From contig JBJEGD010000004.1 of the NCBI GenBank assembly GCA_051874735.1, positions 64,001 through 128,000 of the forward strand: a stretch of DNA of 64,000 nt, written 5' to 3'. Positions 49,245-64,000 of this stretch are shown one piece after another. The notes beneath the pieces were generated by a model. That model was not told the origin of the DNA. It did no database searches and saw only the letters and a program-made list of their open reading frames with translations. Both the position numbers and the translations under genes were made by a program. Every line of letters begins with the position of its first letter. The stretch's first letter is position 1. Source of the DNA: Candidatus Bruticola sp. GTDB lineage: Bacteria; Vulcanimicrobiota; Xenobia; Xenobiales; Xenobiaceae.

Positions 49245-51803
49245 TTAGTTGTTTACAACGCGTTTAAAAGCTTCAACGACTTGGGGATCGAAAGCTGAAC
49301 CGGAACCACCTGAGATAATTTCCACTGCATCGTGAGCACTATAAGTTTTGCTGCCAGGACGCCGCTGCGTTAAGGCTTCAAAAGCATCGCATACAGCAAT
49401 AATGCGCGCTGCTATAGGTATACGATCGCCGGTTAGACTATCTGGCCCTCCACGTCCGTCCCAGCGTTCGTGATGCGCTCTAACTACGGGACAGAGAGCA
49501 CGCAGGCTTGGAACAGTATTGATAATCTCTTCGCTGAAGCGAGCGTGATCTTTAAATAAATCGTACTCCTCTGTTTCCAGATGGCGTATGGTTTGCAACA
49601 GCCATTCTGGCCAACGCAAGCGGCGAGCCCCCTTTTCATGAAGAGTTTGCATATACTCCTCAGAAGTCAAATAATTGTAAAGCTCATTGAGCTTCTCAGG
49701 GCTCTCTTGCTGCATAAGTATGTCCAATTCACCTATATCTTTGAACATTGAACCATACTCGATTTGACGGCGCGTCCTAATATCTTCAATTTTCATTTCA
49801 GCAGCAATTTTGCTACCCAATTCCGCTGTTCTGACAAAATGATCGTAAGCGACCCGTCCTCCTAAACGAATCATCATAATAGCTCCGTTGATAGCTTTCT
49901 CTTCAGCATTCTGCACACCAGTTTGAGAATCGTAAAGCTGTTGAAAGAGATCAGAAATAACTGGCCTCTCAGCGGCGTTGCTGGCACCGTAACGTCGGCT
50001 GCTGGCTGGAATATATTTAGTGCGCATACCTTCCATATGCAGCGGAGCTTTGAAGCTGAGTAAGAATCTGCCAATCCACCCGGTGTCAATGGCGCCCAGA
50101 TATTCAGGCAAAGGCAGAGATGTTGAGGAAAAATGAAGTGGATATTTAGTATCTAGAGCCTTCATGCGCTTAGAGTCGGCATCTTTAATCAGACTTTCTT
50201 CTTCGCTGTCAGAGCCATAATAACCGCAGGCTTGACTAAGCTTTAGCATGTTTGCTCGATTGGTATTTACAGCCATAGCGGAACTTAAAGAAGATGACCT
50301 GAGGCTGCTTCTGCCCGATGACGACATAGAGTTGCCCAGCATACCGTCTGAAACCATTTTTATAGGAGTACTGCTGCGAGCAATCTGTCTTTTGACTCTA
50401 GGCTGGAATAAATAATCTAGTATCGGAGAAAAGACTGGCAAACGTGAATTAGCGGGTCGCCCTCCAAAATTAAGAGCTAATTCTAAGCGAATCTTGGCCA
50501 TAGGCACACTTGAATCAACTGGAATACTAGCTTGCTGATAGTCCGCTTGCCCTGCTGCTGTTTTTTTCTGAGACTGAGAGTTCATAGCAAAGGGCATATT
50601 CGCTTGACGGAATGCTGGTATTGAAGGTATCGTCATAGACGCATTCCCCAACTGAGCGGTGCCTGGAGCTGTTATGGGTTTGCCTACTAAAGGAGGCAAA
50701 GTTGAAGCTTGGGGAGTGGCATTTAAGGCAAAGTTTGCCGTGGCATTTTCAGCAACAGCTGGTGTAGCATTACTATTTGAATCTGGAACAGTGGTTCCCT
50801 CTTCTTTAGGTTCCGAATCTGCATCGGGGGTGGTAATTTCGTTATTTATAGAAGGAATGAGGGGAATCTGTCCAGCTTTAGGAGTGAAAGTGGAGGCAAA
50901 AACTAACTTATGTTCTTCATTAGCTTGAGCTCTAGCTTCTTTGCGGCTTATTTCACGAAAAGGCGACTTGGTAAGCTGATTCATAATCAATTTACTTGAA
51001 GAGGCTTGAAGTTGCGGAGCCGCATTGGGATTTTGTAGAGGGGTAGAAGCTAATGGAGTAAAAGGAGTAGCCTTAGAGAAAACCTTGCGAGGGGCTACCT
51101 TAGGAATGTAAGTCTGATTGTTGCCTTCCTCTTCTTCTTTTTTCTTAGCTGCACTGCGAAGTGTATAAGGCAAAGCTTCTTGTTTCAAAGTTTGCTTAGC
51201 CCAAGACGTATTTTTATCAACACTGCCGCTAAGATCGATGCGTTGTCTAGCTGCCGTTTCATTTAGAATAACTTGAGTTCTGTCTAGCTGCCGCTCAGAA
51301 CTGACTCCGCGCAGTATGTCTTCAATATTGACTTCCTTTTCCAGCAATTCCGCTCCACTGGGTAACTCTGGCTCGGGGACATACTTAAGATGCTGAGCAG
51401 AAATAAGAGCTGTTTTTAAGCTTTCTGATTCTTTAGGCGGAGTAGCGGCAGCGCTTATAGGAGATGTCGTTTTAGATGCGCTAAGATCGCGCAGCTTCTT
51501 AAGAGTTTCTGAATTGAAAGAGTCATTGGGAGCTTTTTGCAGTTCTTCATCGCCGTCTGATCCTATAGGGGTATTCTTTAAATAGGCCCTAATTTTTTTA
51601 TTTAATTCATCGTATATAGACAGAAGCTCTTTAGGAGTAGGCGGAGGGGATTTTTTCTTAGGCTTAGAACCGGGCAAATTATTGTTAATGTCGGGGCTGC
51701 CGGTTCCGCTTGCAGAAGCACGGGATATTCCTAAAGAAGCAGAATTTTTCAGGCCACTGTTGTTTTGGGACGATGACGAATTGTTATGATTGCTTAATGT
51801 CAT
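49245..51803 (-). CDS. HD-GYP-like domain protein with a long disordered N-terminus and degenerate active site
   Basis: HHERWDG, IPIAARIIAVCDAFEALT, FDPQVV; HD replaced by KD and GYP by GGP. Confidence 0.85.
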   Translation of the reverse strand: MTLSNHNNSSSSQNNSGLKNSASLGISRASASGTGSPDINNNLPGSKPKKKSPPPTPKELLSIYDELNKKIRAYLKNTPIGSDGDEELQKAPNDSFNSETLKKLRDLSASKTTSPISAAATPPKESESLKTALISAQHLKYVPEPELPSGAELLEKEVNIEDILRGVSSERQLDRTQVILNETAARQRIDLSGSVDKNTSWAKQTLKQEALPYTLRSAAKKKEEEEGNNQTYIPKVAPRKVFSKATPFTPLASTPLQNPNAAPQLQASSSKLIMNQLTKSPFREISRKEARAQANEEHKLVFASTFTPKAGQIPLIPSINNEITTPDADSEPKEEGTTVPDSNSNATPAVAENATANFALNATPQASTLPPLVGKPITAPGTAQLGNASMTIPSIPAFRQANMPFAMNSQSQKKTAAGQADYQQASIPVDSSVPMAKIRLELALNFGGRPANSRLPVFSPILDYLFQPRVKRQIARSSTPIKMVSDGMLGNSMSSSGRSSLRSSSLSSAMAVNTNRANMLKLSQACGYYGSDSEEESLIKDADSKRMKALDTKYPLHFSSTSLPLPEYLGAIDTGWIGRFLLSFKAPLHMEGMRTKYIPASSRRYGASNAAERPVISDLFQQLYDSQTGVQNAEEKAINGAIMMIRLGGRVAYDHFVRTAELGSKIAAEMKIEDIRTRRQIEYGSMFKDIGELDILMQQESPEKLNELYNYLTSEEYMQTLHEKGARRLRWPEWLLQTIRHLETEEYDLFKDHARFSEEIINTVPSLRALCPVVRAHHERWDGRGGPDSLTGDRIPIAARIIAVCDAFEALTQRRPGSKTYSAHDAVEIISGGSGSAFDPQVVEAFKRVVNN

Positions 51804-51933: not shown

Positions 51934-52533
51934 TTACAATCTGTCGTCGCCCTGAAAGTCATCTGGATCTAAATTGTTTATGAATTGTGATAAAGTGTCG
52001 TCTTCTTCAGTAAGTTCTTCGATAACATTTGTTGGGGCCGAAGATTTAGGTAGTTCCTGATCTTCTTTGTCTGCATCTTCACGGCCTACGTAAAAGACGT
52101 CTTCATCAGCAGCAGGAGCATCAAAGCTTATACCTTTAATGCCTTCTGAGAGTAGTACTTCTTCTTCGGCATAAATAGGAGCTCCCGTTCTCAAAGCTAC
52201 AGCTATACTGTCAGACGGTCGGGCGTCAATAGAAATTTCCTGTCCATCTTTTACTAAAGTCAGTTTGGCATAAAAAGTACTGCGCACGACCTTAGTGATT
52301 ATTACCTCTTTAAGTGAGGCACCGAGCTCTTCAATGATAGTTTTTATTAAATCGTGAGAAGTAGGACGAGGCACCTCGGTGCCTTCCATAGCTAAAGCAA
52401 TAGCTGTAGCTTCGAATACGCCGATAGTTATGGGAAGACTATGACCCTGGCTCTCGTCTGTGAGAATAACTACAGGGTCGTGGGCGATAAGATCTATACC
52501 TAATTTATAGACTTGCATCCTGCGAAGAGCCAT
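51934..52533 (-). CDS. bifunctional nuclease (DUF151) family protein
   Basis: LPITIGVFEA, PRPTSHDL, IDARPSDSIAVALR. Confidence 0.92.
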   Translation of the reverse strand: MALRRMQVYKLGIDLIAHDPVVILTDESQGHSLPITIGVFEATAIALAMEGTEVPRPTSHDLIKTIIEELGASLKEVIITKVVRSTFYAKLTLVKDGQEISIDARPSDSIAVALRTGAPIYAEEEVLLSEGIKGISFDAPAADEDVFYVGREDADKEDQELPKSSAPTNVIEELTEEDDTLSQFINNLDPDDFQGDDRL

Positions 52534-53504: not shown

Positions 53505-54227
53505 GTGGGTGAGCGTTTTTCCGTCGCTGTAGTTACCGATTGGCAGGGGACGGCCGGTCCTGCTATCTGCAATGCTTTAATTCAAGCCGGCTTCAGCGTT
53601 TTAATTAATGGGCCCCAGGAGGTACTCTTTAATATCCCTCCTTCCGATGCTATGGGCAAAGTTTTAGCTCAGCCTTTCGATACGACTAATGAACAGGAAG
53701 TACAAGAAACTTTTTTGACCTGTGCTAATCACTTGGGAGGCATTGACGTCTTAGTTAACAATAACTACTTCTGGAATGATGCTGCTTTGGGTGATATTAC
53801 CGAAAAAATGTGGGAAGAAGTCATCAATCGCGGTTTAAAAAGTACTTTTTATTGCAGTAGAGCAGCTAGCCGTTTTATGAAGACTCAGGGCTACGGTAAG
53901 ATTATCAATGTCATTAGTTCTTCGGCATTTAACGGTGTTTACACTCAATTCGCTTCAGTGTGTGCCGGTATCCATTCCTTAACAAAATCGTTGGCCAAAG
54001 AATTGGCTCCAGAAGTTAGGGTAAATTCTGTAGCTCCAGGCTTGATCGACGAGCCTTGGATTGATGAAGGTGGTAAGGAGCTCAGGGAAATGCTGGTGCG
54101 CGATGTTTTGTTAAAGCGTCTTTGTTCCAACGATGATATTGCTGAAGCTGTAAATTATTTAGCTTGTGGCGCCGATTTTATGACTGGCCAAATGCTGGTG
54201 TTAGACGGCGGTGAATGTTTGCATTGA
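53505..54227 (+). CDS. SDR-family (FabG-like) protein with degenerate motifs
   Basis: GGIDVLVNN, GKIINVISS, LAKELAP-VRVNSVAPG, TGQMLVLDGG; TGxxxGxG and YxxxK absent. Confidence 0.85.
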   Translation: MGERFSVAVVTDWQGTAGPAICNALIQAGFSVLINGPQEVLFNIPPSDAMGKVLAQPFDTTNEQEVQETFLTCANHLGGIDVLVNNNYFWNDAALGDITEKMWEEVINRGLKSTFYCSRAASRFMKTQGYGKIINVISSSAFNGVYTQFASVCAGIHSLTKSLAKELAPEVRVNSVAPGLIDEPWIDEGGKELREMLVRDVLLKRLCSNDDIAEAVNYLACGADFMTGQMLVLDGGECLH

Positions 54228-54323: not shown

Positions 54324-56768
54324 ATGGATTATTTTATGAAAAGCAAGTCTGTTGAGACGCTTATTATACGCTGCATATTACCGTTGTTAATATTTATTTT
54401 AAGCAGTTGTTTATCAGCCTATGCTCAAGACCAGGACTGGTTTGCCTCTGGTGACAGCGATTCTGTTTCTTTTTACGATAAGGAGGCGCCTTATATAAGC
54501 CTAGGCTTAGGTCCAAATAATTTGGGCAAAAAGTCTTCTTCAAATATAACGCGGATCGATTCTTTAGAAGGCACAGTAGTCGACTTTGATAATAAAGAGC
54601 GGGAGATTCTTTATAGAACTGATAACAACAATTATTTAAGTGGCTCTTATTTTATTTCTTTACAAAAGCATTGGCTGAGCAGTGTCAATTTAACAGCAAA
54701 GCGGTTAGTAGCTCAGAAGGCTGTCAAAAACGATGAAGCCAAGGTAATTTTAGTTAGAGATAAGTTCGCTGTCCTGCGCCAAGAAAATTCTTTTTCTGTT
54801 TTCCGCCAGGATAATTTACAGCTTTTATGGGAGCGAGACTTCTCATCTGAATTCGGTTTAATCGCTAGTAATATAGGTGTATGGCCGGAACAAATGGTCT
54901 TAATTGGCCAAGCTGAAGGTCAAAAATCTTTTATTTGTGCCTCAGTAAACTTGGCTGACGGTCAGATCCGCTGGAAAAAAACATTATCGGGTCTCTTCGC
55001 AGATTTAGCGGTTTCATCTCAGTTTGTTTACTTGGCCTTTACTGAAGAGAATGGCTACAATTCTAGTCAGGTTCACGGAGCTAAAGGTACTATTTGTTCA
55101 CTGTCGCTTAGTAACGGTAGGATGAGCTCCAGTAGACAAATAATAGGGCTATATCGTTTTTATGCAGGTCCAAATAGGCTTCTGACTATTTCCTGCAGTG
55201 ATTACGGAGCAAAAACTGCCTATGTTATGGAACTTTATTCTACCGATTTGCAGCTCTTAAATAGCATTGGCATAAGTTTTCTGCCTCAATGGGTAAATTT
55301 TAGTTCTAAGCAAATTAGGGCTCTTTACTCCGATTTAGATTCTTTGGAACGCTGGAATTTATGCGTACTTTCAGCTGAAGATGGAAAAGTACTCTCCCAT
55401 TTTGAAATAAGCAATAAGTTATATCAGCTGGTATGCGATAGAGATAATGTTTGGTTTTTTATAGGTATTGATAATGCTGTCGCTGTATACTTGTTGCAAG
55501 ATAACGAGCTAATCTCAGTGACAGAATGCTCATTTGACATGGAAGACAGCCCTTATTTAGGGTGTAGTGCTCTGATTTTAGGTAATAATCTTTATGCTTG
55601 GGGTAAAAGAGCTAACTCTGCTGTTTTATCTATTGCGGCTTTAGATCTTAAGAGCAGGCGCCGTTTAGGCTGGAGTAGTAAAAATTTAGACTCGGCTTCT
55701 CTTATCCCTTGTGGTAATTCTCTGGCTATGGTGTCTGTAGATAACGATCGTTTTACCGGCGAAGTTGTCAGCCGTATTAAACTTATCGATTTCAAAAAGG
55801 GTGGATTTTCGTTTACATCTGAGCCGATTAAAGGTCAAATCGTATCTTTCGGAGGAGATAGGGCTTTGTCTGCTGCTAGGTCGGTTCTGCGCAAGCGGCA
55901 CCTTGAGGTTCACGATGACGCTTTAATATATCTGGCTTCTTCTGGGGGAGAGCTGACACTTCTGAGCCAAAACGGTAAAATTTTGACACGTCCTTTGAGG
56001 AGCATATTTTTTGATTGGACAAAGCTAAATAATTTTTGCGGAGTTATTCTTTTAACTGGGTGTATTCTATGGTATATAGCCCAGGCTAATCGGGGAAAGA
56101 AGCTCTTTATACGTGAAATAGCTGGTTTGAGTGCTCTAGATGAAGCCGTCGGCAGGGCTACTGAAATGGGGCGTCCGGTGCTGTATATACCTGGAGTCGG
56201 GGAGATAGATGATACGCAGACTATGGCCGCTCTTTCAGTTTTAGGCAAGGTTAGCAGCTGCACCGCCGAGTATGGTTGCTCTATTATGGTGCCTAACTGC
56301 AGCCCTGTAGTAATGTCTATGGCTCAAGATGTCGTCAGTCAATCTTATTTAAAGGCCGGATGTCCCGATTCTTACGTTAGTGATAATATCTGCTATTTAT
56401 CCGGTGAACAGTTTGGATTCGCTGCGGGGGTGTGCGGTATTATGGTGAGGGAGAGACCAGCGGCTGTCCTCTACATGGGCACGTTTTTAGCTGAGGCCTT
56501 AATGCTGGCGGAAACTGGTAATTCTACAGGAGCCATACAAATTGCTGGTACAGCTAGCGCTTCTCAACTACCTTTCTTTGTGGCCGCTTGTGATTACACA
56601 CTTATTGGTGAGGAACTTTATGCCGCCTCCGCTTATCTTTCCAATGATCCTATGCAGATAGGCTCATTAAAGGGGCAGGATGCTGCTAAAGCGGCTATTA
56701 TGGTGCTTATTATCGCAGGTATAATTTGCCTCAGCTGCGGAGGCCATTGGATCTCCTATCTTTGGTAG
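54324..56768 (+). CDS. exported beta-rich (PQQ-propeller-like) domain, TM helix and DUF6754-like C-terminal domain
   Basis: Signal peptide ending AYA; W-ending blade-like motifs (LLWER, GQIRWK); C-terminal IREIAGL..LDEAVGRATEMGRP...ETGN..GAIQIAGT...QLPFFV..CDYTLIGEELYAASAYLS. Confidence 0.8.
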   Translation: MDYFMKSKSVETLIIRCILPLLIFILSSCLSAYAQDQDWFASGDSDSVSFYDKEAPYISLGLGPNNLGKKSSSNITRIDSLEGTVVDFDNKEREILYRTDNNNYLSGSYFISLQKHWLSSVNLTAKRLVAQKAVKNDEAKVILVRDKFAVLRQENSFSVFRQDNLQLLWERDFSSEFGLIASNIGVWPEQMVLIGQAEGQKSFICASVNLADGQIRWKKTLSGLFADLAVSSQFVYLAFTEENGYNSSQVHGAKGTICSLSLSNGRMSSSRQIIGLYRFYAGPNRLLTISCSDYGAKTAYVMELYSTDLQLLNSIGISFLPQWVNFSSKQIRALYSDLDSLERWNLCVLSAEDGKVLSHFEISNKLYQLVCDRDNVWFFIGIDNAVAVYLLQDNELISVTECSFDMEDSPYLGCSALILGNNLYAWGKRANSAVLSIAALDLKSRRRLGWSSKNLDSASLIPCGNSLAMVSVDNDRFTGEVVSRIKLIDFKKGGFSFTSEPIKGQIVSFGGDRALSAARSVLRKRHLEVHDDALIYLASSGGELTLLSQNGKILTRPLRSIFFDWTKLNNFCGVILLTGCILWYIAQANRGKKLFIREIAGLSALDEAVGRATEMGRPVLYIPGVGEIDDTQTMAALSVLGKVSSCTAEYGCSIMVPNCSPVVMSMAQDVVSQSYLKAGCPDSYVSDNICYLSGEQFGFAAGVCGIMVRERPAAVLYMGTFLAEALMLAETGNSTGAIQIAGTASASQLPFFVAACDYTLIGEELYAASAYLSNDPMQIGSLKGQDAAKAAIMVLIIAGIICLSCGGHWISYLW

Positions 56769-56790
56769 CTTGTTTTAAAGGATTATATAT

Positions 56791-57453
56791 ATGAAGCGTG
56801 AGATTCCGCTGCTGATTACTTTCATTGCCGGCTTGGTAATGATAGTGCAGTTTTACAGTTACCCTCTGAATTGGCTGGGCGACCTGTTTAATGATTTTTA
56901 TAATATTATCCTTACCTTTGCCTTTATATTAGGGGCTTTGAGTCTTTTTGCCGTTAATGGTAAAAAAATTATGTCGCAGACTCCTGGCTGGGGATACAAC
57001 TGTGTATTGCTGCTGTCTTTAATAGTAACATTAATTTGTGGCCTTTTTCTGGCTCCGCATGGCAAGTTACCTACCGACGAGGGGACAGCCTTCAGCTGGA
57101 TTTTTGATCATATATTTACCCCTCTGTCGGCAGCTACTTACAGTTTGTTGGCCTTTTATATCGCTTCAGCTTCTTTCAGAGCTTTTCGGGCCAGATCTTG
57201 GGAAGCAGCTTTGCTGCTAGTTACTGCGTTCATCGTCATGCTTTTCCGCGTTCCTTTAGGTGAACATCTGTGGCAGATGTTACCTATAGTAGGTCAATAT
57301 GATATAGCTAAATTTATTGAAGATTGGTTAATGGGCACTTTCAATGCCGCTGGTCAGCGGGCTATTCTCTTAGGAGCCTCAGTCGGATTGATTTCTGTAT
57401 CTTTAAAAATATTGCTAGGTATTGAGCGATCTTATTTAGGAGGCTCCGATTAA
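56791..57453 (+). CDS. conserved multi-TM membrane protein
   Basis: About 6 hydrophobic segments; SLLAFYIASASFRAFRAR, AGQRAI, LGIERSYLG. Confidence 0.85.
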   Translation: MKREIPLLITFIAGLVMIVQFYSYPLNWLGDLFNDFYNIILTFAFILGALSLFAVNGKKIMSQTPGWGYNCVLLLSLIVTLICGLFLAPHGKLPTDEGTAFSWIFDHIFTPLSAATYSLLAFYIASASFRAFRARSWEAALLLVTAFIVMLFRVPLGEHLWQMLPIVGQYDIAKFIEDWLMGTFNAAGQRAILLGASVGLISVSLKILLGIERSYLGGSD

Positions 57454-58286
57454 TGTTAGCTAAGTTGTCAAATTTGGATAGGCGCTGGATTTTTTTTGCT
57501 CTAGCCTTATGTGTGATTATTCCTCTTGTTTGGCCGCTTCAGCTGCGGATAGAGCCTAGTCCGCTCAGCATCAAATTTTATGAAACTGTAGAAAATTTGC
57601 CAGAAAATTCCTGCGTTTGCATGTCGTTCGATTATGGACCAGGCACTAAGGTAGAGTGTCATCCTATGGCTGTAGCCATGTTGCGCCACCTTTTCCGCCG
57701 CAAATGCAAAGTCGTATGCATAGCCTTGTGGCCTGAAGGCAGTCTTTTTGCTAGAGAAGCATTGCAAGAAGCAGCCAAAGAATATGAAGCCGTATATGGT
57801 GAAGATTATGTCAACTTAGGCTACAAAAATGGAGGAGAGGTTATACTTAAGGCTATAGGGGAAGATTTTGGCTCAATATATACGTCAGATTTTTCTGGTC
57901 GTCGTTTGTCTGATTTGCCTATTATGAATAGAGTCGTTGGATGGGATAGTTTTGATTTAGTCTGCGATTGGTCTATGGGGCGTCCTGGTCTAGCTGAATT
58001 CGTTCGTGTGGTTGTTGGCCAATATAATCGTCCTTTATTGGCTGGTACTACAGCCGTAACTACTCCTGAGGCTTATCCTTTTTTGAATTCTGGACAATTA
58101 ATTGGTCTATTAGGTGGTTTGCGCGGAGCCAGCGAGTATGAAGTGCTGATAGGCATGAAGGGCGGTCAAGCTTCGCGGGGTATCGATGCTCAATCTATGG
58201 CCCATTTTTTTGTGGCTTTTCTGATCGTTTTAGCCAATTTAATATACTTTGCCCAATGCTGGCATAAAAAAAATACTAGAAACTAG
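57453..58286 (+). CDS. conserved membrane-anchored alpha/beta protein
   Basis: N- and C-terminal TM; DRRWIF, SFDYGP, YGEDYVNLGY, GLLGGLRGASEYE, DAQS; TAATG coupling to the upstream gene. Confidence 0.85.
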   Translation: MLAKLSNLDRRWIFFALALCVIIPLVWPLQLRIEPSPLSIKFYETVENLPENSCVCMSFDYGPGTKVECHPMAVAMLRHLFRRKCKVVCIALWPEGSLFAREALQEAAKEYEAVYGEDYVNLGYKNGGEVILKAIGEDFGSIYTSDFSGRRLSDLPIMNRVVGWDSFDLVCDWSMGRPGLAEFVRVVVGQYNRPLLAGTTAVTTPEAYPFLNSGQLIGLLGGLRGASEYEVLIGMKGGQASRGIDAQSMAHFFVAFLIVLANLIYFAQCWHKKNTRN

Positions 58287-58310
58287 CTGTAGAGAGGCTG
58301 CGGATCTATT

Positions 58311-58958
58311 ATGGAAGCTCATTCATTAAGTGACCTTATAGGAATGTGGATAGGTGTTTGCCTGACTATGTGCATTTTCAGCTTTCTCTATAAGGATAAT
58401 CCTCTGTACAGATTAGCTGAGCATATTTTTGTTGGAGTCTCTGCCGGCTATTGGATGTGCATTGGGTACTGGCAGGTGATTTACCCTAACTTGATTTTGA
58501 AACTGCAGAGTGGCGATTGGCGCTATTTAATAGCAGCCGTACTCAGTATTATGCTTTTAGCTAGAGTCGTGCCCAAGTATGCTTGGATTAGCCGTTGGCC
58601 TTTAGCCTTTATGGTCGGTATTTTCGCTGGCTATAACATAGTCTATACCATGGAAGCCCAGGTTATTCGACAGCTTGAGGCTACGGTTGTGCCACTTTGG
58701 GGATGCCCAGATTTCGCGACTTTTTTATCAAATTTGATTATTGCAGTTGGGGTCTTAAGCGGCCTGATGTATTTCTATTTTTCTAAAGAACATAAGGGAA
58801 CTTTTTGGGGTAAAACTGCTAAAATAGGCATAGGAGTGCTGATGATCTCCTTTGGAGCTGCCTTCGGGTACACCGTTATGGCCAGAATTTCTTTGCTGAT
58901 AGGGCGGGTTATGTACATTCAGGATGTATGGCAGGCTACTGTTAACTTCTTCCGTTAG
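58311..58958 (+). CDS. conserved multi-TM membrane protein
   Basis: SFLYKDNPLYRLAEHIFVGVSAGY, SRWP, FGAAFGYTVMARISLLIGR. Confidence 0.85.
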   Translation: MEAHSLSDLIGMWIGVCLTMCIFSFLYKDNPLYRLAEHIFVGVSAGYWMCIGYWQVIYPNLILKLQSGDWRYLIAAVLSIMLLARVVPKYAWISRWPLAFMVGIFAGYNIVYTMEAQVIRQLEATVVPLWGCPDFATFLSNLIIAVGVLSGLMYFYFSKEHKGTFWGKTAKIGIGVLMISFGAAFGYTVMARISLLIGRVMYIQDVWQATVNFFR

Positions 58959-59071
58959 ATTTGTCTATTTTGGGCTACAGTTGAGCTCGAAAATATTTTT
59001 AAATCTTGAATTATAGCTTTTTGTGGTTCTATTTGAAACATATTAGTTAGGGGGTAAGAATTTAAGTAAGT

Positions 59072-60217
59072 ATGCTGAATATGGAAAACCATCGATACCG
59101 CAGTTCGTTTCACGCTAATACTGGACCCGATCATGAAGAAGTTGCAGATAGCTATACTCATGAAGTTGAAAGTAGCGAGCCACATCAAGAGGGGGCCTCT
59201 GTACCCTTAAGTTTTGTAAATAATTCCCCCAGAAATCAGATACTTTCCGTAATATTTAAGTTTTGTTCCCGTATTTACAAGAAAATTTTAAGATCACTTC
59301 CTGGTAATATCGATGGTCAACTGCCGGGTAGATTTAAACTGCTCTATTCACTGTCATTTTTTATATTGTTTTTGGGATTTATTGCCTATCCTTTGGTGTT
59401 CCCATATATAGATGATGATGTAAGTTTGTATTGTACATTAGGCAGTTCTATGTCTTTTTTTATTAGTTTTATTATTCTAATTTCGCCTAGTTATGATCCT
59501 CCTGAAGAGTATATCGAAGATGATTATGAAACGGCCATAGAATCTTCTTTTTCTGAAGAAGAGTCTGAACCACTTACAATTGAATATTCTTATTCGCATT
59601 TCCAATATCTAATTTATACTTTGATAGCTGCTGCTATGGCTGCTATTGGCTACTACCTTATGATTTGTATTTATATATACATGCAAAAATATTATTTAAA
59701 CGATGCTTTAAATGTGAGTACGTCAATACACGTCATTGTGGCTATATTTATAGTGGTTGCCTCGTTTCTAACTTTTGGCAATTATTACCAAGAAACAGCT
59801 GTGATAACTTTGACAAATGAGGGTATAAAAGGAAAAATTAAGGGGCTTTTCTCTCTCAAAGATATAAAGGAAAGTTTTTACGCATCATTAGGACTCGGGA
59901 GTGTTCATGTCGATAGAGATGAGCTTCCCTCCGATTTGTTAGAAATGATCCCTTCTCTCCCCGTTCAAGATGAACTGGACTGGGAGTATTTTAAAGCTTT
60001 TTCCGTTCATCATGAGTGCATTGTATTGTGGTCCAAGCCTCCAGAAGAAAATTTTATGAGCCTGTTGTACATCACCGTAGGAGCAAGCCTTGAGCTAAAT
60101 CCTTCAATGCGCTTATTTATTCCGCAAAATGATCTTCAAAAAGTAACTAACTTTTTGTCCCATAAGCTAAAACAAGTGAAGTTCTATCCCAACGCCAGTC
60201 TTATTTACAGAATGTAA
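59072..60217 (+). CDS. hypothetical membrane protein with a C-terminal YcxB/PH-like region
   Basis: About 4 TM segments, then LTNEGI...WEYFKAFS...IVLW...LFIP. Confidence 0.65.
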   Translation: MLNMENHRYRSSFHANTGPDHEEVADSYTHEVESSEPHQEGASVPLSFVNNSPRNQILSVIFKFCSRIYKKILRSLPGNIDGQLPGRFKLLYSLSFFILFLGFIAYPLVFPYIDDDVSLYCTLGSSMSFFISFIILISPSYDPPEEYIEDDYETAIESSFSEEESEPLTIEYSYSHFQYLIYTLIAAAMAAIGYYLMICIYIYMQKYYLNDALNVSTSIHVIVAIFIVVASFLTFGNYYQETAVITLTNEGIKGKIKGLFSLKDIKESFYASLGLGSVHVDRDELPSDLLEMIPSLPVQDELDWEYFKAFSVHHECIVLWSKPPEENFMSLLYITVGASLELNPSMRLFIPQNDLQKVTNFLSHKLKQVKFYPNASLIYRM

Positions 60218-60315
60218 ACATTTGTAAGTCTTTTTTGTCGCGAATATCAAACTTCAGTAGTTTATAATGGGATAAAGCTAGTGTAGCTTTAGAACGAACA
60301 AAGGGAATATGGGCA

Positions 60316-60984
60316 ATGGTAGATTATTTGCACATAATTAGAAACACAAATTTTACACAACATGTAAATTATTTAACTTCTCCAGATTATCTAGTTATAG
60401 ATCATAAAGTCTTCCGGGGACGCGGTTTGGCGAAATTGTGGTATATGTTAAAACCGTTGGTAGCGATAATTATATTTGTGGCTTTATTTACATATGTAAT
60501 GAACTTTAATGTTGGAGAATTTGAGCTTACTATTGCTTTCATTGTCCTTGCTTTGGCCTTATTTATAATATTTGGGGGCTCTGATGATGGCGATTTTGAT
60601 GTGAATTTAATATTCAGTGAGACTGGGCTGACTATGTTAGTTAATTCCCAAAATGGGCGGACTAATATGATTAAACATTACCCCACTTTCGCAAGTGTAT
60701 CTGGTGAAATGGCTTGGTCTCAGTTTAAAAGCTATTCTATAGTGCATCACGAGAAGCGAGGAACTGTTTCTATTAGGCTATGGCTGATTGATGAGCCTGA
60801 TAGCTGCTCTTACGATGAACTTAAGCTTAAAGAGCGACGTAATGTTGCTGTTGAATTCTTCCTTAATCCCATAGATAATCGCTATATCAAACTGGGAGAT
60901 TGTAAAATTACAGAACTTAAAGCTGGCGTCAAATTTCTGCAGGAACATTTGCCTTTGTATTCTGAATTTAAAGTCAGCGATTAG
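60316..60984 (+). CDS. hypothetical 2-TM protein with a YcxB/PH-like region
   Basis: 2 TM segments, then FSETGL...WSQFKSYS...IRLW. Confidence 0.65.
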   Translation: MVDYLHIIRNTNFTQHVNYLTSPDYLVIDHKVFRGRGLAKLWYMLKPLVAIIIFVALFTYVMNFNVGEFELTIAFIVLALALFIIFGGSDDGDFDVNLIFSETGLTMLVNSQNGRTNMIKHYPTFASVSGEMAWSQFKSYSIVHHEKRGTVSIRLWLIDEPDSCSYDELKLKERRNVAVEFFLNPIDNRYIKLGDCKITELKAGVKFLQEHLPLYSEFKVSD

Positions 60985-61114
60985 CTTCCGCCTCATATTA
61001 ACAAAGGCTGGAATAGCTTTTTTTCATAAGAAAATAGGTGGATGCTGCAGCGGTTGAGCCTATATCATTTTTCTATATGGCAACTGTCTGAAAGTTTGTG
61101 TATAGGGTATAAGT

Positions 61115-61615
61115 TTGAGTAAAAAACATTATAAAAACAAGCAGAGCAATTCTAAAAATAAAGAAATTGCTTTGCCTTTAATTATTAGGCAGCATCCTGC
61201 CGTTAAGCGCCCTTGGTTGACTGCAGTTATTGTTCTTTTTTTGTTATTGATGATCTTCTCTATGTTCAGTTCTAAAGGAGGCTGGAGTAGTCTGCTAGTT
61301 CCGGCAGTTTTACTAGTGGTTATACTGCATGGCCTTATTCCTTATTTCGTTCCCACTACTTACACTTTTACTAAAGAACAGATCGAAGTGCGCCGTTTTG
61401 GTAAGCCTTCTGTGTTTAAGTGGGATGATTACCGCGCCTATTCTATGCAGAGCAATGGTTTTGTGCTTTGGATGGAAATGCATCCTGCCTCCAAAAGTTC
61501 TTCATTTTCCAAATATTTTAAAAGTTTGCGAAACTCTGTTTTTATTCCCCTCGATGAGGAATCTATGCAAATAGTTGAACCTCTGATTTCTCGCAAGTTA
61601 GTCAAGACCGATTAA
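61115..61615 (+). CDS. 2-TM protein with a YcxB/PH-like region
   Basis: HPAVKRP, 2 TM segments, FVPTTYTFTKEQI...WDDYRAYS...FVLW...VFIP; TTG start uncertain. Confidence 0.7.
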   Translation: MSKKHYKNKQSNSKNKEIALPLIIRQHPAVKRPWLTAVIVLFLLLMIFSMFSSKGGWSSLLVPAVLLVVILHGLIPYFVPTTYTFTKEQIEVRRFGKPSVFKWDDYRAYSMQSNGFVLWMEMHPASKSSSFSKYFKSLRNSVFIPLDEESMQIVEPLISRKLVKTD

Positions 61616-61627
61616 TTAATAAGTGAT

Positions 61628-61945
61628 ATGAATATAAATTGGCGGGAAATGTGGTCCCTACAAGAACCTGTGTCTTCTGAAACTGAGCAGGCTAAAGTGG
61701 AAAATGATGTAAATCGATTAGCTCAGTTGGTAGTTTCCAGCCATTTAGGAGTTCCGGCTCTTTGGTTTTTGGAATCGTGCCGTCCGCTCCATTTTATAGG
61801 CAGTCAAGCTTTGTTTTTTCTTTCACCGGCTGCCAATATGTTCGGCTGGGGTGATTTATGTCGCCAGATGGCTAAAATTGCGGAGCAGCCTTCTCAAATG
61901 GAAGCTTTGATGGAAGCTATCGAGCAATTGGAAATTCAAAAATAA
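61628..61945 (+). CDS. small conserved hypothetical protein
   Basis: LAQLVV..LGVPALWFLESCRPLHFIGSQALFF; TAATG-coupled to the next gene. Confidence 0.75.
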   Translation: MNINWREMWSLQEPVSSETEQAKVENDVNRLAQLVVSSHLGVPALWFLESCRPLHFIGSQALFFLSPAANMFGWGDLCRQMAKIAEQPSQMEALMEAIEQLEIQK

Positions 61946-63747
61946 TGAACAGCACGATAAATAAAGATTCAATCGTTTCAATATTGGCTACAGATTGTGG
62001 CAGTACTACTACCAAAGCTATTCTCATAGAAAAGGGGCCTGAAGGTTTTCGCTTAAGAGCCAGAGGCGAGGCGCCTACCACTGTAGAAGCACCAGCTGAA
62101 GACGTCACTCAAGGTGTGCGCAATGCTGTTATGGAGCTTTCAGAAATTACTGGTCGCCCTCTTATCGATGATAAAGGTGAGCTGATTAAGCCTTACGATG
62201 GCAAGCAAGGAATAGATATTTATCTCTCCACTTCGTCTGCGGGTGGTGGTTTGCAAATGATGGTAGCTGGAGTTGTGGCCAAAATGAGTACGGAGAGTGC
62301 TCAAAGGGCCGCTCTAGGTGCTGGAGCTGTCGTGATGGAAACCCTCTCTTGTAATGATTCGCGCCGTCCTTATGAAAAAATAGAAATTATTCGAAAACTT
62401 CGGCCGGATATGGTACTTCTTTCTGGCGGAGTTGATGGCGGGGTTCAGAAACATGTAGTGGAAATGGCTCAAATATTTGGAGCTGCCGATCCGCGGCCTC
62501 GTTTAGGGGTAAATTATAAATTACCAGTTATTTTTGCCGGCAATCGGGACGTCCGCGAACAAGTAAAAAAAATATTAGGACATAAAACTGCTCTGGAAAT
62601 AGTTGATAACATTCGGCCTACTATGGAACGGGAAAACTTACAGCCCGCCCGTTTGAAAATTCAAAGTCAATTTTTAGAACATGTTATGGCGCATGCTCCA
62701 GGTTATCCCAAACTGATGGCTATGACTGACGAGCCCATTATGCCTACTCCGGCAGCAGTTGGCATGATTATGCAAAAAATTGCCTCAACTCGATCGATAA
62801 ATATACTTGGCGTTGATATCGGTGGAGCTACAACTGACGTTTTTTCTGTTTTTGACGGCAATTTCAATCGCACAGTCTCGGCCAATTACGGTATGAGCTA
62901 CTCGATATCTAATGTTGTGGCCGAAGCTGGTTTAAATAATGTTTTGCGTTGGGTACCCTTTGCAGTTGAAGAAGCTAAGCTGCGCAACAGTATAAAAAAT
63001 AAAATGATTCGTCCTACTTCTATTCCTTTTCTTATAGAAGATTTGGAAATAGAACAGGCTATTTGTCGAGAAGCTTTGCGCTTATCCTTTGAGCAGCACG
63101 CTCTCTTAGCTGATGGATTAAAGGGAGTTCAGCACCAAGCTGAGATAGGCTCTATCTTTAATCAGGGGGAAAAGAAAAGTTTAATTGATCCGATGCGTTT
63201 AGATATGCTTATAGGTTCAGGTGGCGTACTTTCTCATGCTCCGGAACGTTGGCAGACCGCTTGGATGTTAATAGATTCGTATCTTCCCTGCGGTGTGACT
63301 CAACTGGCTGTAGATTCCATATTTATGATGCCGCAATTAGGTGTGCTTTCGGCTATTATGCCTGAAGCTGCCGCCTATGTTTTTGAAAAAGATTGTCTGA
63401 TAGAGTTAGGCACTTGCATTGCTCCGCGTTTTACCAATGGACGGGCAGTAGCTGAGGGACAGGAAATTCTCAAAGTTGAATTTAGCCATGGTGAAACTTT
63501 AGTATTGCACATGGGTGAGATTATTGTGCGTAAGTTGCCCGTTGGAGAGAGCTTGCAGGCACGTTTAGTTCCTATAGGACGGACTGATATTGGAGCTGGA
63601 GCCGGTCGAGAAGCAGAATTTACTTTGAAGGGCGGTACTACTGGTCTTATTTTTGACGGTCGAGGGAGGGCTCCGTTTGTGCTGCCTGCAGAACGTTCAG
63701 AGCTTGTCAAAAAACTTCAGGAATGGAAGGCGGCTTTTAAAAAATAA
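61945..63747 (+). CDS. GlmL/MutL-like (glutamate mutase L family) ASKHA-fold ATPase
   Basis: Phosphate-1 DCGSTTTK, SSAGGGLQM, LLSGGVDGG, phosphate-2 DIGGATTD, MPTP, GSGGVLSHAP. Confidence 0.88.
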   Translation: MNSTINKDSIVSILATDCGSTTTKAILIEKGPEGFRLRARGEAPTTVEAPAEDVTQGVRNAVMELSEITGRPLIDDKGELIKPYDGKQGIDIYLSTSSAGGGLQMMVAGVVAKMSTESAQRAALGAGAVVMETLSCNDSRRPYEKIEIIRKLRPDMVLLSGGVDGGVQKHVVEMAQIFGAADPRPRLGVNYKLPVIFAGNRDVREQVKKILGHKTALEIVDNIRPTMERENLQPARLKIQSQFLEHVMAHAPGYPKLMAMTDEPIMPTPAAVGMIMQKIASTRSINILGVDIGGATTDVFSVFDGNFNRTVSANYGMSYSISNVVAEAGLNNVLRWVPFAVEEAKLRNSIKNKMIRPTSIPFLIEDLEIEQAICREALRLSFEQHALLADGLKGVQHQAEIGSIFNQGEKKSLIDPMRLDMLIGSGGVLSHAPERWQTAWMLIDSYLPCGVTQLAVDSIFMMPQLGVLSAIMPEAAAYVFEKDCLIELGTCIAPRFTNGRAVAEGQEILKVEFSHGETLVLHMGEIIVRKLPVGESLQARLVPIGRTDIGAGAGREAEFTLKGGTTGLIFDGRGRAPFVLPAERSELVKKLQEWKAAFKK

Positions 63748-63749
63748 AT

Positions 63750-64000
63750 ATGAGCAGTGCTTATGTCCCCGGTCTAAAAGTTACCGATCAAATTGAATTA
63801 AAAATAGAGCGTCGTTTACCCCTGAAAGGGAATGTAATTGTCAAAAAAGGGGATAGAGTCCGCTGGAATACTGTGGTGGCCAATACTTTCTTACCTGGAA
63901 GTGTAGAAATAGTTAATGTAGCTGCTAAGTTAGGAGTTGCTCCAGGTGAAGTTAGCCGGATTATGCTCAAACAGGAGGGTGATACCGTATTAAAAGGTGA
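63750..64000 (+). CDS. conserved hypothetical protein, 3'-truncated (not in the ORF track)
   Basis: Read directly: MSSAYVPGLKVT...ERRLPLKGNVIVKKGDRV...MLKQEGDTVLKG; repeated VKxGDxV-type motifs; starts 2 nt after the previous stop. Confidence 0.8.
   Translation, partial: MSSAYVPGLKVTDQIELKIERRLPLKGNVIVKKGDRVRWNTVVANTFLPGSVEIVNVAAKLGVAPGEVSRIMLKQEGDTVLKG

Follow-up and report, generated by a model that had tools for sequence, protein, structure and literature searches.

A conserved seven-gene locus encoding a long-form MutL-family ATPase and DUF6754-associated membrane proteins in Candidatus Bruticola and other bacterial phyla

Introduction

The reactivases of glycerol and diol dehydratases are among the closest described counterparts of the gene set analyzed here. 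In the passages of PMC7674605 that deal with them, the alpha subunit combines an Hsp70-like ATPase domain with a swivelling domain, and ATP hydrolysis helps the small beta subunit to leave this swivelling domain. The locus of this study is located at the end of a 64,000-nucleotide stretch of a Candidatus Bruticola sp. genome (contig JBJEGD010000004.1, positions 64,001 to 128,000), hereafter called the window, and comprises ten genes, numbered g1 to g10 in map order; all coordinates below are window positions. They encode an ASKHA ATPase of the MutL/GlmL family (g9), a beta-rich partner protein (g10), a membrane protein with a domain of unknown function (DUF6754; g1) and further membrane and accessory proteins. 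A functional analogy is offered by the type VII ATP-binding cassette (ABC) systems MacB, FtsEX, and LolCDE, in which a cytoplasmic ATPase drives the extracytoplasmic domains of a small membrane complex.

The curated families that cover the system amount to two names, a DUF and a misleading ‘MutL’, and no structure has been solved that can be recognized by sequence. We found no publication on the system (subscription journals were outside the literature search). The database label ‘glutamate mutase L’ gives the false impression that thousands of genomes encode B12-dependent glutamate fermentation. An earlier note, made from the sequence of the window alone, had read the ten genes as a multi-subunit, ATP-driven membrane machine. 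Here we analyze how the gene set is conserved, what its proteins resemble, and which explanations of its function are to be considered.

Conservation and co-occurrence of the gene set

Seven genes (g8, g9, g10, g1, g2, g3, and g4) form a conserved core that is inherited and kept together across many bacterial phyla. Scanning one genome per species yielded 580 relatives of g9, and the best 80 of these 580 loci were kept. Gene presence was scored from open reading frame (ORF) calls and iterated profiles of the ten proteins, contig-cut loci included. Gene g9 is present in all 80 loci; g8 was found in 67, g10 in 63, g1, g2 and g3 in 46 each, g4 in 43, g7 in 36, g5 in four and g6 in two. The full core occurs in 40 of the 80 loci with a median span of 6.95 kb, and 26 of these complete loci also carry g7. 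The complete loci come from about ten phyla; the phylum labels of the loci comprise Vulcanimicrobiota/Eremiobacterota, Bacillota, Bdellovibrionota, Latescibacterota, Planctomycetota (Brocadiales and others), Nitrospirota, Gemmatimonadota, and more. The ATPases of the kept loci are 56–95% identical to g9, and 56–68% across phyla; the closest locus (95%) is labelled Candidatus Bruticola, a genus of Xenobia (Vulcanimicrobiota). The ten-gene system proposed in the earlier note thus holds for the seven core genes, while g5 and g6 are lineage-specific and g7 is only an accessory.

The core is organized as two fixed blocks, g(7)-8-9-10 and g1-2-3-4, which are joined in either order. The membrane genes are located downstream of g10 in 32 loci and upstream of g7/g8 in seven (the arrangement of the window), and in one locus they converge from the other strand. 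Gene g8 accompanies the ATPase in most loci and the membrane block in L042, L028, and L019. Five genomes with unlinked blocks were examined, three of them labelled Poribacteria and the other two Eremiobacteraeota and Vulcanimicrobiota, respectively. All five hold a single partner gene and a single DUF6754 gene elsewhere (5/5); there, g10 is solitary and g1, g2 and g3 stay together.

Co-occurrence was also followed genome-wide in two phylum samples, whose tables were compared by hand for the phylum of the window. Among its 151 genomes, DUF6754 was found above the cut-off in 48, the partner in 49 and the long-form ATPase in 49 (long forms being called at ≥260 bits or by a match to the C-terminal extension, with short forms at ≤164 bits). 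All three are present in 47 genomes, one or two in four, and none in 100; the partial genomes G107, G109, G026, and G085 are 61–72% complete. Among 121 genomes of the Planctomycetota, the phylum of locus L041, DUF6754 occurs in 34 and the partner in 32, with both in 31, one in four and neither in 86; the four genomes with only one of them all have it on high-numbered contigs. Taken together, 78 genomes encode both DUF6754 and the partner, seven only one, and 187 neither. These counts bear no statistic since related genomes are not independent, but the same near-perfect pattern was repeated in both samples. The recurrence in other genomes that the earlier note had put forward is hereby supported for bacteria.

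Organization of the locus in the window

The claim of ten co-directional genes agrees with the ORF list, which contains ten plus-strand ORFs with the same coordinates; all opposite-strand ORFs in the region of g1 to g10 are at most 117 aa long. Rereading the sequence also reproduced the tight coupling that had been described. TAATG overlaps join the stop of g2 to the start of g3 (57453) and the stop of g8 to the start of the ATPase gene g9 (61945), and the intergenic gaps in the tight parts are 22, 24, 12, and 2 nt, compared with 113, 98, and 130 nt around g5 and g6. Hydropathy analysis gave three hydrophobic segments for g1, five for g2, two for g3, four for g4 and g5 each, and two for g6 and g7 each; no hydrophobic segment was detected in g8, g9, or g10. 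The earlier note's figure of three hydrophobic proteins is therefore too low, as g5, g6, and g7 are membrane proteins too. A hidden Markov model search of each ORF, which the note had suggested, returned only two strong family matches, DUF6754 on g1 and PF13941 on g9, with RnfC_N just passing on full-length g10.

The ATPase g9 and its separation from GlmL

Gene g9 (61945..63747, + strand) encodes a 600-aa long-form ASKHA ATPase of family PF13941 (MutL/GlmL family). The MutL profile matches residues 13–484 (Pfam; E 3.9e-121, 405.4 bits vs a cut-off of 27), which form the core of the protein, and is followed by a C-terminal extension (485–600) that is missing from the short forms of the family. 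Three nucleotide-binding motifs are invariant among 13 long-form sequences with a mean column identity of 69%: phosphate-1 (D17-C-G-S-T-T-T-K24), phosphate-2 (D291-I-G-G-A-T-T-D298), and adenosine (G424-S-G-G427). The phosphate motifs that the earlier note called intact are thus invariant in 13/13 sequences. The nucleotide site of g9 is intact and the protein is a predicted ATPase. Its best 120 relatives, whose source names come from several phyla, all have a size between 590 and 652 aa and are 61–100% identical.

The profiles curated for B12-mutase helpers fit g9 poorly. It scores 224.7 bits with NCBIfam GlmL (NF040745, methylaspartate mutase accessory protein; equivalog cut-off 475), 205.6 bits with Or-4 (NF040744, a GlmL-related protein of ornithine degradation; cut-off 600) and 160.6 bits with the glmL family model (cut-off 204). 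The genome of the window (92.4% complete) contains a single strong PF13941 gene and no match to the Met_asp_mut_E, Lys/Orn aminomutase (Lys-AminoMut_A), or methylmalonyl-CoA mutase families; the aminomutase search was validated by the two that it finds in a genome of the same genus (G008). The nine B12-binding domains of the genome are all located in ORFs of 489–1235 aa, away from the cluster. The statement that no glutamate mutase subunit is encoded nearby extends beyond the window as well: the contig past position 64000 has no glmS or glmE downstream of the cluster and instead encodes an acyl-CoA synthetase.

Short forms of the family have a different company. Genome G008 holds both a long form and a separate short form of 463 aa, the latter beside OAM_alpha and a Lys-AminoMut_A/OAM_dimer/B12-binding protein (OraS/OraE), and in G141 a short-form gene is located directly upstream of Met_asp_mut_E. 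Identity between g9 and short forms is 27–29% over residues 11–482, and the last ~116 residues of g9 have no counterpart in them. No g9-type gene adjoins a mutase in the loci examined. Because its genome has no B12 mutase and the short-form MutL genes of its relatives adjoin such mutases, g9 is not a GlmL; these sequence comparisons place it in a long-form branch that is separate from GlmL and Or-4, the helpers of B12 mutases. We hold the coherence of the system and this separation from GlmL with high confidence.

The short-form gene of G008 is part of an ornithine-degradation cluster (L103; G008:C17:9000-23000) with OraS/OraE, a racemase-like gene and a pyridoxal phosphate enzyme, and a lysine aminomutase-like gene is found on another contig of the same genome. 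The genome of the window has neither these ornithine-degradation genes nor the lysine aminomutase-like gene.

The partner g10 and its fusion with the ATPase

Gene g10 starts at 63750 (+ strand), is open at the window end (63750..64000) and continues for 889 bases on the contig to window coordinate 64889, giving a protein of 379 aa in all. It consists of N-terminal barrel-sandwich hybrid domains, a swivelling beta/beta/alpha domain (~152–300) and a KOW/SH3-like domain (313–379), and was modelled with a mean predicted local distance difference test score (pLDDT) of 89.2. Residues 51–123 resemble the N-terminal domain of NqrA (Z 7.9, root-mean-square deviation (rmsd) 1.9, 64 residues aligned) and that of RnfC (Z 7.6; range of the matches 7.4–7.9), at a level where, according to the tool (Z below ~8), a match may reflect merely a common arrangement. 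The central domain resembles the swivelling domain of phosphotransferase system enzyme I (2wqd; Z 9.1, rmsd 3.1, 109 residues aligned), as well as RraA (Z 8.7), rifampin phosphotransferase (Z 8.3) and the small subunit of aconitase X (Z 8.0), and residues 316–378 resemble KOW domains (Z up to 8.7, rmsd 1.5). The single Foldseek match at E ≤ 0.001 is NusG of T. maritima. On the sequence level, full-length g10 lies just above the RnfC_N cut-off of Pfam (27.7 bits). The note's description of a barrel-sandwich-like partner with VKxGDxV-type motifs was apt: the window part contains VKKGDRV (31–37) and GDTV (77–80), and among 42 partner relatives RnfC_N matches 35, Biotin_lipoyl 33, NQRA_N 15 and KOW 12 (E ≤ 1).

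Two carrier roles suggested by these folds were considered and rejected. The alignment of the 42 sequences contains no invariant or near-invariant His, Lys, or Cys. Because of this absence, g10 is neither a phosphohistidine protein of the phosphoenolpyruvate-utilising mobile-domain type, in spite of the fold matches (no conserved His), nor a biotinyl or lipoyl carrier (no conserved Lys), and a phosphoryl or cofactor relay through g10 was dropped as well.

The partner is widespread: in a library of 1.84 billion proteins clustered at 50% identity, its profile finds 3,595 representatives at E ≤ 0.001, of which 1,143 reach E ≤ 1e-30. Among its relatives longer than 664 aa, 113 out of 114 also carry PF13941 and are thus ATPase-partner fusions. 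Two close fusions of ~990 aa (P0124 and P0127) have the MutL domain at the N-terminus and a barrel-sandwich match near residue 690, which corresponds to g9 followed directly by g10. As other lineages encode both as a single polypeptide, g9 and g10 are, judged by their sequences, one functional unit. A more divergent class of fusions shares 30–37% identity over ~64% of the partner and carries an N-terminal helix-turn-helix (HTH_3/XRE-type; P0181) or a zinc ribbon (P0195).

Some further variants of the partner were observed. The divergent fusions comprise P0181, P0195, and some 60 more, with source names from Cloacimonadota, Fermentibacteria, Delongbacteria, and Mcinerneyibacterium, and this class may be a regulatory offshoot of the ATPase-partner unit. 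A second partner gene is present in some Planctomycetota genomes (e.g., G184, G216, G241, and G266). The last of the 114 long relatives, an apparent partner-DUF6754 fusion (P0121, 707 aa), was discarded: this lone sequence runs from the partner into g1, signal peptide included, and ends inside DUF6754. It probably arose from a gene-calling error or a frameshift where g10 and g1 overlap.

The DUF6754 protein g1

Gene g1 (54324..56768, + strand, 814 aa) encodes the membrane protein with the DUF6754 domain. According to hydropathy it has a signal/anchor segment (12–30), an exported region of 537 aa (~31–567), a transmembrane (TM) segment (568–586), a cytoplasmic part (587–786), and a second TM segment (787–805). 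Basic residues follow the first of the two TM segments, ahead of DUF6754 and the second one, and the alpha/beta DUF6754 domain is thus tethered in the cytoplasm between two membrane helices. DUF6754 (PF20539) matches residues 562–810 with 373.8 bits (E 4.6e-112; cut-off 27). Proteins with this domain and a size between 447 and 1425 aa form 2,525 clusters at E ≤ 1e-20; the domain is missing from all 14 control model genomes. Its near-invariant stretch reads ...GAIQIAGT....QLPFF...CDYTL.GEELYAASAY... The domain was modelled at a pLDDT of 70.6 and had no Foldseek match at E ≤ 0.001.

The exported part of g1 is a BamB-like PQQ_2 propeller, scoring 18 bits here and 67 bits in a relative from the same phylum (L100), and a PQQ_2 annotation is precomputed on many relatives. 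In other phyla, the membrane part of g1 is preceded by a signal peptide and a ~130-aa domain that bears the motif DTPND.G.S..L.W; the source name of one relative (P0488) is that of a fibronectin type III protein. By sequence the propeller is lineage-specific, and a small fibronectin type III (Fn3)-like domain takes its place in other phyla. An exported-domain membrane protein, as the earlier note had described it, is thus encoded, with the qualification that the domain itself is swapped between phyla.

In several Planctomycetota genomes two DUF6754 genes are located a few kb apart (G259:C18:108933-113021; also G172, G208, G249, and G235).

The membrane and accessory proteins g2 to g8

Genes g2 and g4 encode polytopic membrane proteins, g2 (56791..57453, + strand, 220 aa) with ~5 TM segments and g4 (58311..58958, + strand, 215 aa) with ~4. 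Both have conserved motifs, ...ASAxYRxFRAR... and a C-terminal ...GIERSYLGG in g2, and YSFLYKDNP..AEH and YFFFS.EHKG in g4. Between them, g3 (57453..58286, + strand, 277 aa) encodes an alpha/beta domain of ~216 aa flanked by two TM segments, which is probably extracytoplasmic. The small helical protein g8 (61628..61945, + strand, 105 aa), without predicted TM segment, carries the hydrophobic motif PA..FLES..PLNF.GSQ.

None of g2, g3, g4, g5, g6, and g8 matches a Pfam family. Searching each member of the families of g2 (33 sequences), g3 (32), and g4 (27) against Pfam at E ≤ 1 returned only scattered chance hits. Searches of PDB sequences with profiles of the ATPase, the partner, g3 and g1, and with the exported region of g1, gave nothing significant (for the g3 profile, nothing below E 0.006). 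ESM Atlas returned only DUF6754 proteins of the system itself or unnamed clusters, the latter being the only matches of g3, and profile comparison with hhalign detected no relation between g3 and g1, g2 and g4, or the ATPase and the partner.

The lineage-specific genes g5 (59072..60217, + strand, 381 aa; four TM segments and a C-terminal domain) and g6 (60316..60984, + strand, 222 aa; two TM segments and a C-terminal domain) are followed by the accessory gene g7 (61115..61615, + strand, 166 aa). The latter encodes a basic N-terminal tail, a TM hairpin (35–53/61–79) and a C-terminal domain of ~87 aa, with a weak DUF6585 match of 21.2 bits (under the cut-off of 27.7). Compared to the g7 family by hhalign, g5 reached a probability of 21% (E 0.0011) and g6 of 31.5% (E 0.0005); both are possibly diverged copies of g7. 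A close relative carries four tandem g5-like genes between the membrane block and g6/g7 (L014:4331-8155), where the window has one. This array looks as if small TM-hairpin proteins with a weak likeness to g7 had multiplied rapidly at this place.

Genomic neighborhood

The gene after g10 encodes an AMP-binding, long-chain-like acyl-CoA synthetase. A short-chain dehydrogenase/reductase (SDR) gene of 240 aa (53505–54227, + strand) is located 96 nt upstream of g1, and an SDR gene is found at this place in L013, L016, L021, L022, and L050 too. These two flanks may be a lineage-specific link to lipids or chance.

In other loci the neighbors differ. Clustering of 1,876 flanking ORFs yielded only clade-specific, mostly housekeeping neighbors, such as fabH-fabD-fabG-fabF-rnc upstream in one group of Latescibacterota, SBP_bac_5 upstream in another, and gap-pgk-tpi upstream in a Bacillota locus. 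An OppD/OppF-like ABC ATPase pair directly follows g4 in six Latescibacterota loci (L076:16586-18510, L031, L059, L064, L072, and L090) and one Anammoxibacter locus (L041:17060-19619); in the closed genome of L076, to which the search for a permease was confined, the nearest BPD_transp_1 gene is hundreds of kb off. A BtuFCD-like set (Peripla_BP_2, FecCD, ABC_tran) is located directly upstream of g1 on the same strand in a Bdellovibrionales locus (L042:16650-19828, − strand), in which g9-g10 converge on this block from the other strand. The neighbors do not reveal the function of the system.

Further upstream, the window encodes an 852-aa protein (49245–51803, − strand) whose long N-terminal part is of low complexity and rich in Ser, Asn, and Pro and whose C-terminal domain is of the HD_5 (HD-GYP-like) type, adjoined by a bifunctional-nuclease-domain protein (51934–52533, − strand). 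GC skew is positive in all 2-kb bins of the window (1–64000) and the cumulative skew climbs throughout. This pattern would fit a window that belongs entirely to one replichore and has mostly leading-strand genes. Scans for promoters (38 vs 30.6 ± 5.4) and terminators (13 vs 13.0 ± 4.2) did no better than on shuffled sequences.

Proposed mechanism and its rivals

The seven-gene set can be read as an ATP-driven machine of the cytoplasmic membrane of an undescribed kind, and we consider the chances of this reading to be about even. The g9-g10 unit would attach from the cytoplasm to a membrane complex made up of g1 to g4 and grip DUF6754, the Rossmann-like domain of g1. As ATP is bound and hydrolysed in cycles, this grip would change, so that the g1–g4 complex moves, and the movement would be passed via the membrane proteins to the outer face, namely to the conserved g3 domain and the variable exported domain of g1. 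The work done would be the transport of a substrate or a mechanical action on the envelope, with g8, and g7 where present, as putative adaptors between the soluble and the membrane parts. Both the driving of the membrane part by ATP and the output, transport or envelope work, are inferred only. More tentatively, and in our view rather doubtfully, the system would represent a new class of membrane energiser, in which an ASKHA ATPase and a swivel partner power a four-protein complex that acts as a primary transporter or transmits force across the envelope. Of the machine proposed in the earlier note, the co-occurrence of the genes, the absence of a mutase and the absence of a match to a characterised complex (looked for in Pfam, in NCBIfam, among PDB sequences, and by fold) have stood; its extent has shrunk from ten genes to seven, and the exported domain of g1 has proved to differ between lineages.

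The only physical evidence that links the ATPase to the rest consists of the ATPase-partner gene fusion and a weak complex prediction. The latter combined full-length ATPase, g8, and residues 58–248 of a 284-aa DUF6754 piece, with DUF6754 as the scored chain. Three runs gave interface scores (ipSAE) of 0.54, 0.49, and 0.49, compared to 0.00 for the best of three controls, one of which kept DUF6754 and swapped out the ATPase; contact agreement was at least 78% and the pLDDT of the partner chain at least 72. Of 157 solved complexes, 116 pass the mark applied, as do 2 of 215 mismatches, and at ipSAE ≤ 0.60 it is passed by only 18 of the 157 and by both of these mismatches, counts that are only approximate here since our alignments were our own and three chains were used. 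The prediction lends weak support, a modest rise in odds, to a contact between g9 and the cytoplasmic DUF6754 domain.

Several observations weigh against a membrane machine. According to the tool, a docking pass as weak as this one is more often wrong than right unless the contact was already likely. The fold matches of DUF6754 are a flat list of generic Rossmann-like folds (Z 8.1–9.5), and its most conserved stretch (g1 723–760) was modelled at a pLDDT below 50. Neither g2 nor g4 matches a transporter family at E ≤ 1, and no obvious substrate path was seen. With a phosphoryl or cofactor relay being unlikely from the alignment, only a mechanical role would be left for g10. At least 11 loci with flanks of ~10 kb on either side have no membrane block nearby, and the divergent fusions with HTH or zinc ribbon hint at a regulatory role for their class.

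Four other explanations were considered. The system could be a membrane enzyme, with DUF6754 and g2 to g4 performing lipid, cofactor, or redox chemistry and g9-g10 serving as its ATP-dependent activase or reactivase. The mutases beside short-form relatives of g9 (OraS/OraE in G008, Met_asp_mut_E in G141) would fit this explanation, as would a Rossmann-like DUF6754 with a near-invariant stretch, an N-terminal domain of g10 like that of NqrA and RnfC, which are peripheral subunits of membrane redox complexes, and the lipid genes that often adjoin the locus (fab genes in Latescibacterota, SDR and acyl-CoA synthetase here). We nevertheless regard it as unlikely, as no cofactor-binding family was found on any of the proteins, the matches to nucleotide-binding Rossmann proteins are generic, the neighbors vary from phylum to phylum, and the lineage-variable exported domains of g1 fit a structural or envelope role better. 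These same domains, being variable scaffolds of the propeller or Fn3-like type, would also suit a signalling device, in which the ATPase-partner unit senses the membrane complex or the envelope and signals to cytoplasmic targets without performing membrane work. The divergent fusions with an XRE-type HTH (P0181) or a zinc ribbon (P0195) point in this direction, but DNA-binding and signalling domains are missing from the class found in the window, the 80 loci share no regulator as a conserved neighbor, and an ATPase identity of 56–68% across phyla is unusually high for a sensor, which makes signalling an improbable explanation.

Such conservation is of the order known for Hsp70 and actin homologues, and the layout of the fused forms resembles that of Hsp70, in which an ASKHA domain is followed by beta-rich domains. 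Together with the housekeeping genes among the neighbors, this would agree with a membrane-anchored cytoskeletal or chaperone element that forms a polymer or binds a client, with a role in cell shape, division, or the quality control of membrane proteins. Such an element has slimmer prospects than the signalling device: a Pfam scan at E ≤ 0.01 returned no match to MreB, FtsA, or Hsp70, and some two thirds of the genomes in either phylum sample lack the system, which is therefore not essential for growth in general. The least credible explanation is a true GlmL-type helper of a B12 mutase encoded elsewhere, with the membrane genes as unrelated neighbors. The strong PF13941 match (E 3.9e-121) and the name ‘glutamate mutase L’ that sources give to relatives speak for it, but the NCBIfam scores are far under the GlmL and Or-4 cut-offs, the three mutase families have no match in a 92.4%-complete genome, a genome of the same genus has the long form in addition to a separate short form beside OraS/OraE, and the long form occurs together with DUF6754 and the partner rather than with mutases. 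We consider it very improbable.

If the ATP-driven machine with its actin-fold motor proves true, it would be a new way of coupling ATP to the membrane, and the energiser would stand beside ABC, P-type, rotary, and AAA+ machines. It would serve housekeeping in about one third of the genomes of several bacterial phyla that are largely uncultured, and supply a missing piece of cell biology in Planctomycetota (including anammox bacteria), Nitrospirota, Latescibacterota, Poribacteria, Gemmatimonadota, Eremiobacterota, and others.

Comparison with known systems

The DUF6754 family, of which g1 is a full-length member (profile positions 5–253 of 257), provides a name only, and the term is absent from the literature searched. 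None of the ten proteins matches ABC_tran or a permease family, so the locus does not encode an ABC transporter. Its likeness to the type VII ABC systems is one of function: the ATPase has an ASKHA and not an ABC fold, and no FtsX or MacB domains were found in the Pfam scan.

NqrA and RnfC share the N-terminal barrel-sandwich hybrid domain with g10 and are, like g10, soluble subunits alongside small polytopic membrane proteins. The rest of NqrA and RnfC is absent, no flavin or Fe-S motifs were seen, and by sequence comparison g2 to g4 match no Rnf or Nqr membrane family at E ≤ 1.

With the reactivases GdrAB and DdrAB, as the relevant passages of PMC7674605 portray them, the system would share three counterparts, namely an ASKHA ATPase, a swivelling domain (in g10), and an alpha/beta domain (DUF6754). 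The swivelling domain is separate here or fused C-terminally rather than inserted in the ATPase, the alpha/beta domain is membrane-tethered, and a B12 enzyme is missing. The likeness is only one of function, as the Pfam scan of the window proteins gave no match to reactivase families at E ≤ 0.01 and the fold-match lists returned do not contain the reactivase itself.

The nearest relatives by sequence are GlmL and Or-4, which have the Pfam family and the ASKHA fold in common with g9. The latter stays under half of their curated cut-offs and has an extra C-terminus of ~116 aa. While the short forms adjoin OraS/OraE or glmE, g9 goes with its partner g10 and the DUF6754 protein.

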